Of a stretch of DNA of 64,000 nucleotides, positions 42,001-45,000 are shown piece by piece. The position numbers were made by a program. Origin of the DNA: a virus (lineage: Duplodnaviria; Heunggongvirae; Uroviricota; Caudoviricetes); the IMG/VR virus record IMGVR_UViG_2718218396_000003, one strand, 5' to 3'. The stretch's first letter is position 1. Every line of letters starts with the position of its first letter.

Positions 42001-45000
42001 CACGGATAATGCCCGGTACAGTGATTTCAGTTGCACGATAGAGCAGGTGGTGAACTGATGCAGAATATTCATGAAGAAAGCCTGAACGAGTCGGTTAAGT
42101 CAGAGCAGTCACCGCGGGTGGTGCTCTGGGAAATCGACCTGACGGTGCAGGGCGGTGAGCGGTATTTTTTCTGCAATGAGCTGAATGAAAAAAGGGAGCC
42201 GGTGACCTGGCAGGGGCGGCAATATCAGGCGTACCCGATTGAGGGCAGTGGCTTTGAGATGAACGGAAAGGGCAGCAGTGCCCGCCCGTCGCTGACGGTG
42301 TCCAATCTGTTCGGTCTTGTCACCGGGATGGCGGAGGATTTGCAGAGCCTGGTGGGTGCCACGGTGGTCCGCCGCCGGGTGTATGCCCGTTTTCTGGATG
42401 CGGTGAACTTTGTGGCAGGCAATCCGGAGGCCGACCCGGAGCAGGAGCTGACTGACCGCTGGGTGGTGGAGCAGATGTCATCGCTGACGGCCATGACGGC
42501 CTCGTTTGTGCTGGCCACACCGACCGAGACGGACGGGGCGCTGTTTCCCGGTCGCATCATGCTGGCGAACACCTGTATGTGGGATTACCGGGGAGATGAA
42601 TGCGGGTATAACGGTCCTGCGGTGGCGGATGAGTTCGACAACCCCACCCCGGATATCCGTAAGGACAGATGCAGCAAGTGCATGCGCGGGTGTGAACTGC
42701 GCAGGAATGTCGGCAATTTTGGCGGTTTCCTTTCCATTAATAAACTTTCGCAGTAATGGATTATGCCCACCGTCAGGTGGGTTTTTTATTTAGTAGTTCT
42801 CTCAACTTTTCGTTCTGCTCTCTGAACTTTTCCTGTATTTCTTTTTGCATGGCGATAACCTGGGCTTGAAGTTGAACTAGCGCATCAACATTTAGCGGAA
42901 CCGAGACGCTGTTAATTTTATCTGCTATTTCCCCGAGTGTATTTTCTGCATTCAAGGCATCTTCCAGTATCTGAACAATCTCTGAGTTCATAGAGCGCCC
43001 GTTTCGTTTGGCTCGTTCAGCTATAGCATCTCGCATTCCGTCAGGAAAACGGAGGTTGAACTTGTCGTAGTCTTTTACTTGTTTTTCGGCCATTGCAAAT
43101 CTCTCAAAAAAAATCATGGTGCCATATTGCCATACGATTTCAATGGTGGCATTATGGCCTTCATGGCGTCACTTTGGCACCAAATAAAGGAGATTAGATA
43201 ATGCAAGATACACTTTTCACTGAGCGCAAAAATATCAAACTCAACCTTCGCCTTCCATCACGGCTGAATGAAGACCTTCGCCGCCTGGCGGAAATGGACT
43301 GTATATCTCTGAACTCTGCAATTGTTCGTTTGCTGGCAAAAGGTGTTAGGGAAGAGGTGGCGAATGGTCGCTAAAAACAGCGAAGCCTCAATGGCTGCAA
43401 CCATTGAGGCTTCTAAATTACCAGTTAACCACGAGAAAACTGATATGACTAGTTTAGCAATTGCAGATCGCACAATCAATGTTCCATTCCACGGAACAAA
43501 TCTCTTTTTGGTTGGAATTAACAATGAGCCTTATGTTCCTATGAAGCCTGTTGTTGAAGGTATGGGGATGGTTTGGGCTGCTCAATTTGTTAAGTTAAAA
43601 CAGAGGTTTGTCAAAGGTATTTCGGAAATCGAAATACCTTCTGCTGGCGGTAAACAGTTAATGACATGTCTTGCCTTTCGTAAATTTGCGGCTTGGCTTT
43701 CAAGCATTCAACCAAACAAAGTCCGCCCTGAAATCCGCGACAAGGTAATCCAGTATCAGGAAGAGTGTGACGATGTGCTCTACGAGTACTGGACTAAAGG
43801 CCATGTGATTAACCCGCGCAAAGCTAAAAAGGCATTGCCGGGGAAAATCACCACTGAACAGCAGGAAGCCATTAAACAACTCGTCATGAGTCGCGGTCAG
43901 TCTCTGCCAAAAGAAAAACAGGCGAAGGCGATGATCACCATGTGGTCGTCACTGAAATCTCATTTTGGGTGTTCATACAAAGAAATCAGCGAGGAGCAGT
44001 TTACCGAAGCTCTGTCACTTGCTGCTCGCGTTCCGCTTGAAGGAGAGTTAATCGGCAAACAAGAGAAGAGCACCAACGAGCTTTCCGCAAAAGAAGCAAA
44101 CAGCCTTGTATGGCTATGGGATTATGCCAACCGCTCACAGGCATTATTCCGCGAACTGTATCCGGCGCTAAAACAAATTCAATCGAACTATTCCGGCAGA
44201 TGCTACGACTACGGTCATGAGTTCTCGTATGTTATTGGAATGGCGAGAGACGTTTTAATTAATCACACACGAGATGTTGATATCAATGAGCCAGACGGAC
44301 CAACGAATCTTTCCGCATGGATGAGACTTAAGAATAAAGAATTACCTCCTTCACCGCATCACTACTAACAGATTGCCAACGAAATGACCCAGCTTCGGCT
44401 GGGTTTTTATCAGGAGTTCTCATGCTCTATAGCAATATATTGGCGCACGCCCGGCGATGTGCACCAGCGGAGTCGTGCGGCTTCGTGGTGAGAACGCCGG
44501 AAGGGGAAAGATATTTTCCCTGCGTGAATATCTCCGGTGAGCCGGAAGATTATTTCCGGATGTCGCCGGAGGACTGGCTGCGGGCAGAAATGCAGGGGGA
44601 GATTGTGGCACTGGTCCACAGCCACCCCGGTGGTCTGCCCTGGCTGAGCGAGGCCGACCGGCGGCTGCAGATAAAGAGTGCCCTGCCCTGGTGGCTGGTC
44701 TGCCGGGGGGAAATTCACAAATTCCGCTGTGTGCCGCACCTGACCGGGCGTCGTTTTGAGCACGGGGTGACGGACTGTTACACCCTGTTCCGGGATGCAT
44801 ACCATCTGGCGGGGATAACGCTGCCGGATTTTGTGCGTGAGGATGACTGGTGGCGCAACGGTCAGAACCTTTACCTGGACAATATGGCGGCGACTGGTTT
44901 TTACCGGGTGCCCCTGTCCTCTGCACAGGCGGGCGATATCCTGCTGTGCTGCTTTGGCGCATCGGTGGCCAATCATGCCGCCATATACTGCGGCAACGGT

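Follow-up and report, generated by a model that had tools for sequence, protein, structure and literature searches.

A probable portable gene end, the P22_AR_C coding segment with its terminator, shared by two antirepressor-type genes of an Stx2c prophage

Introduction

The Bro-N, KilA-N, ORF6N and P22_AR domains form a domain-shuffling network that was reportedly described by Iyer, Koonin and Aravind in 2002. Both P22_AR_C and ORF6N are members of this domain-swapping "Bro network" (PMC10111431). The DNA considered here, a stretch of 64,000 nucleotides (nt) from a virus of the Caudoviricetes (IMG/VR record IMGVR_UViG_2718218396_000003; the window in what follows), is recognisable as the Stx2c prophage of Escherichia coli strain 7784, which lies beside dacD/sbmC and is close to phage 1717, and it carries two genes that end in P22_AR_C. 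Gene A, which is flanked by ninE and roi in the nin region, joins this domain to ORF6N; gene B, or ant, joins it to P22_AR_N and is the last gene of a module resembling P22 immI, which is inserted between the tail genes L and K and has a terminator on each side. The ends of the two genes share a segment, here called the cassette (copies A and B), which is composed of the coding part for P22_AR_C and the terminator that follows it. As in the Bro-N/KilA-N/ORF6N/P22_AR network, one C-terminal domain is found with four N-terminal domains among the phages compared. Going beyond the description of that network, the terminator behind the gene is part of the shuffled unit here, and mosaics of A and B were mapped site by site.

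The immI region of phage P22, also called the "ant moron", is composed of mnt, arc, sar, ant and a terminator. The ant moron of P22-like phages shows rapid flux (PMC2629481), and the P22 Ant protein inactivates several repressors (summarised in PMC3121763). Locus B has the same layout, with a sar-like candidate over the ant start, and an identical terminator hairpin, but it lies between the tail genes of a long-tailed lambdoid Stx2c phage and not before a tailspike gene, the protein in the mnt position belongs to the Arc family by Pfam, and the match to sar stays below the gathering score.

For gene A the closest relative described is the Ant of Phi24B, a "lytic induction enhancer" that is also found in 933W, VT2-Sakai and Min27. 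When ant is knocked out in Phi24B, the late promoter retains about 30% of its wild-type activity after induction, and the Phi24B and P22 Ant proteins are 82% identical in their last 104 residues (PMC3064807), which is the same figure as for gene A against gene B (85/104). Gene A is likewise a nin-region ant beside roi and the counterpart of the VT2-Sakai gene annotated ant (similar to P22 antirepressor), but it has a different ORF6N N-terminal part, with a three-unit tandem repeat of 30 nt; the corresponding protein of phage 1717 is 73% identical to Phi24B Ant (PMC3430580). Upstream of gene A, matches to isrK, to C4 and, near threshold, to an a1/b1 target, together with a 45-codon open reading frame (ORF), follow the order of the Gifsy-1 operon isrK-orf45-anrP (PMC4825925) and recall the C4/CI RNA immunity of P1 and P4; this likeness in sequence concerns the putative regulation of gene A and not the repeat.

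The domain family and its shuffling, as well as the C-terminal similarity between the Ant of Stx phages and that of P22, are already known; sequences exist for phages of the 1717 / 2851 type, and the record of phage 1717 labels both genes as Ant. What is added is descriptive: the exact borders of the unit, the presence of the terminator inside it, a map of A/B mosaics and two cases of rearrangement.

The cassette and its borders

In an ungapped register scan, positions 14135-14489 pair with 44054-44408 over 355 nt without insertions or deletions, on the same strand and at an offset of 29,919 nt, which agrees with the dispersed direct repeat, about 30 kb apart, noticed in the first-pass annotation of this DNA. 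Immediately beyond both borders the identity in the scan is at background (3-8/20 nt). The copies are 81% identical in pairwise alignment (288/359 over 14135-14493), very near the 80% that had been estimated by eye for the ends of the two genes. The extent of about 390 base pairs (bp) given with that estimate was slightly too large, and the repeat begins 14 nt later in copy B and about 35 nt later in copy A than had been proposed. A repeat finder retrieved the pair independently (family D3, 14135-14434 against 44054-44353, 82%), and the repeat of A and B is also seen in a MAFFT alignment.

The similarity is far above chance and extends beyond the terminator. In the coding part, 257 of the 312 nt (82%) are identical, which rules out a similarity limited to the terminator, and the encoded C-terminal peptides share 85 of 104 residues (BLASTP, E = 4e-61). 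The stop codon and the spacer behind it are poorly conserved (11/23 nt over 14447-14469, which includes the first 2 nt of the hairpin), and the 22-nt run at 14468-14489, made up of 1 nt, the 18-nt hairpin and the first three T, is identical in both copies, so that the two do carry the same ACCCAGC-TTCG-GCTGGGT hairpin, as had been claimed. The repeat is exactly the P22_AR_C coding part plus the terminator. Against P22_AR_C (PF10548; cut-off 22.4 bits), the match of gene A covers model positions 2-73 of 73 with 83.3 bits and that of gene B positions 1-73 with 102.6 bits. The N-terminal parts belong to other families: ORF6N in gene A (PF10543; 66.8 bits, residues 12-125, cut-off 27.8), with the 30-nt repeat as an insertion within the match, and P22_AR_N in gene B (PF10547; 135.8 bits, residues 12-121, cut-off 30.7).

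Among 80 IMG/VR loci with the B-type domain, a C-domain 96-100% identical to that of gene B stands behind at least seven N-terminal sequence classes, which belong to four Pfam families (P22_AR_N, Bro-N, KilA-N and ORF6N). Domain shuffling, which had been offered as one possible meaning of the repeat, is thus borne out, with P22_AR_C attached to the unrelated ORF6N and P22_AR_N in this prophage and to Bro-N and KilA-N in other phages. In DNA, the homology to copy B sets in at 44035 where Bro-N or KilA-N precedes the C-domain and at 44054 where ORF6N does, and it ends at 44408 / 14489, just past the T-run, wherever the downstream gene differs (roi, tail gene K or P22-type sequence). Alleles whose protein starts with MNSIAILEAV..., and which we take to be P22 Ant, are 90-91% identical in DNA over 43694-44408. 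Protein homology searches gave a narrower picture: the C-domain alone retrieved mainly gene fragments of low diversity, and with full-length Ant all relatives among the matches listed were at least 82% identical.

Sequences that mark the junctions of lambdoid modules, the "boundary sequences", were reportedly described by Clark et al. in 2001 (HK620). At the right border of the cassette homology breaks off just after the T-run of the hairpin in three downstream contexts, as at such a sequence, and two recombinants cross over there. In the GenBank record of CUS-3, the 101 nt following ant are annotated "bsq1; boundary sequence"; the likeness to boundary sequences is drawn from this annotation and from position.

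The finding is real and was correctly read, and it exemplifies a phenomenon that is already known. It is best explained, with a probability of about 0.85, by a portable gene-end cassette that is carried by two otherwise unrelated genes in the form of diverged alleles and that serves as a crossover site. The cassette would combine the coding sequence for a helical P22_AR_C domain of about 100 residues with a rho-independent terminator that closes the transcription unit, and it would supply both proteins with a common C-terminal module, presumably for interaction or oligomerisation. By analogy with the P22 literature, the hairpin would stop the transcripts that start at each module's own promoter, and an antiterminated polymerase modified by N or Q would read past it into roi or tail gene K. 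As a crossover site with sharp and recurrent borders, the cassette would permit the swapping of N-terminal domains, of patches and of whole ant modules, the products of which are observed, and phage functions of the Red, Orf or Rap type, tolerant of about 20% divergence, are the probable enzymes.

The terminator

The hairpins of both copies have the features of an intrinsic terminator, namely a GC-rich stem of 7-9 bp with a UUCG loop and a T-run, placed after the stop codon. The predicted folding energy is -15.1 kcal/mol for terminator A (z = -3.7) and -15.2 kcal/mol for terminator B, with 12 nt between it and the start codon of tail gene K (ATG at 44422). The terminator scan of the plus strand does not list copy B, whose T-run has one T fewer than the rule demands; on the minus strand this stem is listed. 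The 18-mer ACCCAGCTTCGGCTGGGT has exactly two sites in the window, against 0 expected in shuffled sequences. The stem is unchanged between the copies despite a spacer identity of 11/23, and in about 150 cassettes the hairpin varies only in the loop, with the exception of one stem change. Behind the stop codon the spacer is of three types, the sequence that follows is roi, tail gene K or of the P22 type, and the hairpin is common to all.

In a scan of species-representative genomes two loci were found, both in Pectobacterium polonicum. There, an ORF6N-P22_AR_C gene with 59% identity is followed by a different hairpin (ACCCGCAATTACGCGGGT) and a T-run; a terminator is therefore a regular companion of the P22_AR_C domain. 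The two loci, in strain LMG 31077 (L168 and L169), are two prophage copies in one genome, 96% identical over 3.3 kb, and each has a gene composed of ORF6N, a middle segment and P22_AR_C. By eye, the middle segment resembles that of the fusions with Bro-N and KilA-N; gene A of the window lacks it.

A perfectly conserved hairpin beside a scrambled spacer would also be expected if the segment were kept mainly as an RNA element, either as a small RNA derived from the 3' end or as an antisense transcript. Such an element would suit two loci that are otherwise RNA-regulated according to their Rfam matches, and a small terminator-like stem on the minus strand (ACAGCCATACAAGGCTGT followed by a T-rich tail) is kept in both copies, at 14198-14181 and 44117-44100. 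Conservation of the SLVWLW codons probably accounts for this stem. An RNA element is nevertheless improbable: most coding differences are synonymous, and the ratio of nonsynonymous to synonymous divergence (dN/dS) of 0.15 points to conservation at the level of the protein. No Rfam family was found on the cassette itself, the best score being that of rsmX with 22 bits against a gathering score of 56, and the conservation of the hairpin is accounted for by its predicted function as a terminator.

Recombination at the cassette

Cassettes from related phages were typed at the 67 sites at which the window copies A and B differ. Among 48 non-redundant A-locus contexts, defined by ORF6N upstream and roi downstream, half (24/48) are nearly pure A and the other 24 are A/B mosaics, among which 15 patterns and at least 11 breakpoint intervals can be told apart. 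For six representative mosaics, a permutation runs test gave p <= 1e-4 each, and in one locus (L072) the mosaic is clear in the alignment. Exchange in the reverse direction is seen in L082, a B locus with an A-type 3' end; in this locus and in L164 the type switches exactly at the hairpin.

Two larger rearrangements involve the same genes. At the A locus of O157:H7 EC4115 (L084) there are two tandem ORF6N genes, at 2386-3144 and 3400-4080, and gene A of the window is composed of the N-terminal part of the first and the C-terminal part of the second. From this comparison gene A appears to be a fusion across the 110-nt segment that both tandem genes carry, with the removal of 821 nt; alternatively, EC4115 carries an insertion. 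In O55:H7 DEC5E (phage JLK-2012; L085, 2231-4309), the segment corresponding to 42758-44408 lies within a truncated A-type gene in the nin region of the Stx prophage, so that the whole ant module has moved from the tail-gene position into the nin-region gene by way of the cassette and a 15-nt microhomology. The right junction is within the cassette, which in DEC5E is itself an A/B/A mosaic, and the left junction is at the microhomology (14/15 nt), GGATTATGCC[A/C]ACCG, common to positions 14200-14214 of the cassette and to 42758-42772. The transplanted arrangement is present in 2 of 5,426 complete E. coli genomes. Strain STEC346 has it as does DEC5E.

With direct repeats of 355 nt that include an identical block of 29 nt, with recombination within the cassette clearly occurring in nature, and with gene A itself resembling the deletion product of tandem ORF6N genes over a 110-nt repeat, the two copies might be expected to act, at an appreciable rate, as an active substrate for 30-kb deletions with loss of Q, stx, the lysis and head genes and most of the tail genes. 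The junction that such a deletion would leave, with A upstream and B downstream, was found in 0/5,426 complete E. coli genomes, where even the best matches reach no further than the cassette end, and in 0/111 non-redundant IMG/VR contexts. A divergence of 19% strongly lowers RecA-dependent exchange, and the identical direct insertion sequence (IS) copies of 1,310 nt, which span much the same interval, would dominate. Frequent deletion between the copies is thus very improbable. The proposal that the repeat could mediate rearrangement holds for patchy, non-reciprocal exchange and for module transplantation in related phages; the 30-kb deletion between the copies was not found in these genomes and contexts.

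The exchange observed within the cassette occurs at about 19% divergence, and Lambda Red/Gam gives a high yield of recombinants at 22% divergence, 100-fold over RecABCD (PMC2327257); it is therefore consistent with known phage recombinases. A homing-like process of the Bro network, in which the exchange would be driven by the nuclease activity of the proteins themselves, has in its favour that Bro-network domains are structurally similar to homing endonucleases and that roles in DNA recombination have been suggested for them (PMC10111431), as well as the clustering of conversion tracts in and around these genes. It is highly improbable all the same, as Pfam detects no nuclease domain or motif in either window protein, the breakpoints occupy at least 11 different intervals and do not radiate from one site, and the junctions fall in blocks of identity and in a microhomology, as general homologous or microhomology-mediated recombination predicts.

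Age of the two alleles

Over the 104 shared codons, the synonymous divergence (dS) between A and B is 0.71 and the nonsynonymous divergence (dN) is 0.106, and 30 of the 55 coding differences are at third codon positions. Given this dS and the dN/dS of 0.15, the copies are diverged old alleles and not a recent duplication, and the comparison of the two indicates that they are maintained by purifying selection on the protein. The A-type allele is found alone, at 99-100% identity, in phages of the VT2-Sakai type, with a single matching place found per record, and the B-type allele occurs alone at 99-100% identity in P22-like phages and other prophages. A recent copying of one gene end to the other locus within the prophage, suggested by the presence of both copies in one prophage in the same orientation and with identical length and hairpin, is refuted by the synonymous divergence, together with a DNA difference of 19% and the occurrence of each allele alone in many other phages.

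The C-terminal domain

Several observations weigh against the portable gene end with a common C-terminal module as set out above. On the side of the protein, Ant has no match among the sequences of the PDB, and the gene A protein has only weak matches, such as syncytin-1 (E = 0.019), which were judged to be due to chance. The AlphaFold2 model of the C-domain, built from a shallow alignment of 24 rows, has three helices (residues 22-54, 64-81 and 96-103) and moderate confidence (predicted local distance difference test, pLDDT, 73; predicted template modelling score, pTM, 0.63), and a Foldseek search of the PDB with this model gave no structural match (best E = 0.68). On the side of recombination, the copies in the window are unmixed haplotypes, one of type A and one of type B, so that this genome bears no sign of exchange; the mosaics could come from different co-resident phages and not from the two copies of one prophage; and the prophage is defective, its own Red pathway probably not being intact.

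A common role of P22_AR_C in interaction or oligomerisation is suggested because the domain stays the same behind differing N-termini, and because it is under purifying selection. Our guess from these comparisons is that P22_AR_C, as the invariant part, serves interaction or oligomerisation and that the variable N-terminus confers specificity. An unlikely extension of this idea is that the shared domain brings both proteins together, or onto one common target, to form a single switch for Stx2c induction, into which gene A, under the control of isrK and C4, and gene B, under the control of Mnt, Arc and sar, would both feed, the cassette with its terminator being kept as a universal docking end for the swapping of sensor domains and immunity modules. 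If this were true, the shared domain would couple two differently regulated antirepressor circuits that control induction of the Stx2c prophage. For the biology of Stx phages, the carriage of two antirepressor-type genes under different regulation may alter induction and toxin release.

The two loci and their prophage

The coordinates of the cassette and of the surrounding elements are collected in Table 1. By annotation and homology, it is reasonable to speak of two antirepressor loci, as had been done at the outset, and both are 100% identical to Stx2-converting phage 1717. A stretch spanning one IS insertion has its sole match, at 100%, in E. coli strain 7784, which comes from cattle faeces.

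Table 1. Elements of the cassette and of the two loci in the window
Feature	Position	Strand	Basis or remark
isrK-type RNA, promoter-like site	13411-13440	+	promoter scan
isrK-type RNA	13447..13523	+	Rfam RF01394, 74.7 bits, gathering score 50
isrK-type RNA, terminator-like site	13502-13518	+	terminator scan
45-codon ORF overlapping the C4-type element, layout as Gifsy-1 orf45	13525-13662	+	ORF list
C4-type antisense/immunity RNA element	13549..13632	+	Rfam RF01695, 66.7 bits, gathering score 45
Gene A, ORF6N + P22_AR_C, 254 aa, annotated "phage antirepressor Ant"	13685..14449	+	Pfam, annotation
ORF6N segment of 110 nt found in both EC4115 tandem genes, 99% identical between them	14009..14118	+	probable fusion site of gene A
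Coding part of copy A, 104 codons at the end of gene A (...SLHRY)	14135..14446	+	Pfam PF10548, alignment
Longest identical block of A and B, 29 nt	14198..14226	+	left junction of the DEC5E transplant (14200-14214) and two breakpoint patterns of mosaics lie inside
Copy A, stop codon and spacer	14447..14467	+	length as in B, conservation poor
Copy A, intrinsic terminator, ACCCAGC-TTCG-GCTGGGT then TTTTTT	14468..14491	+	terminator scan; homology with B stops at 14489
Left edge of the B module, right after tail gene L, GGATTATGCCCACCG then terminator hairpin	42758..42782	+	microhomology site in the DEC5E transplant
Divergent ribbon-helix-helix repressor gene in the mnt position, Arc family	42773..43093	-	Pfam Arc, 73 bits; RefSeq annotation
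arc-like ribbon-helix-helix repressor gene, first in the ant operon	43201..43374	+	Pfam Arc, 22.1 bits against cut-off 20.4 (marginal); RefSeq "Arc family"
sar-like antisense RNA candidate over the ant ribosome site and start codon	43379..43445	-	Rfam RF00262
Gene B, ant, P22-type antirepressor by homology, P22_AR_N + P22_AR_C, 307 aa	43445..44368	+	Pfam, annotation
Coding part of copy B, 104 codons at the end of ant (GKQEKSTNEL...SPHHY)	44054..44365	+	Pfam PF10548, alignments
Copy B, intrinsic terminator, same hairpin then TTTTT	44387..44409	+	fold, pattern search, sequence

Upstream of gene A, the isrK and C4 elements are co-oriented with it and both score above their Rfam gathering scores, and a c4-a1b1 target match at 13434-13486 (45.9 bits) is just under its gathering score of 46.7. 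The 30-nt tandem repeat of gene A (13872-13991, three units) lies within the ORF6N match and encodes decapeptides. In phages of the VT2-Sakai type the corresponding region is 30 nt shorter (891 against 921 nt, aligned in two pieces), presumably by one repeat unit, and the copy number of the decapeptide appears to vary.

At locus B, where the divergent repressor gene lies upstream of the ant operon, promoter-like sites overlap at 43127-43202. The sar candidate matches the full length of the model with 29.5 bits (E = 0.0037), which is below the gathering score of 43, and the terminator scan found a 14-bp stem for it at 43413-43382. The repressor of the prophage is annotated as a member of the LexA family (self-cleaving type).

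The prophage is regarded as defective because of its IS insertions and the frameshifts in its helicase, portal and exo genes (RefSeq annotation); its annotated recombination genes are Bet, Gam, NinB, NinG and the frameshifted Exo. The insertions are three 100% identical copies, each of 1,310 nt, of an IS3-like element of the IS1203 family (RefSeq), which we take to be IS629. They are located in the early region between cII and the replication gene (6635-7944, plus strand), in the ninI phosphatase gene (16193-17503, minus strand) and in the tape-measure gene (38500-39810, plus strand). The first and the third are in direct orientation and bracket about 32 kb including stx2c, and this pair would be a much better substrate for deletion than the ant repeat.

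Just outside the tail-fibre genes there is an nleG7 effector gene (about 53030-53680). Past the prophage and dacD/sbmC/yeeA, the window ends in an island (59292-64000) with yeeS, yeeT, cbeA and a frameshifted cbtA, which is presumably CP4-44-like.

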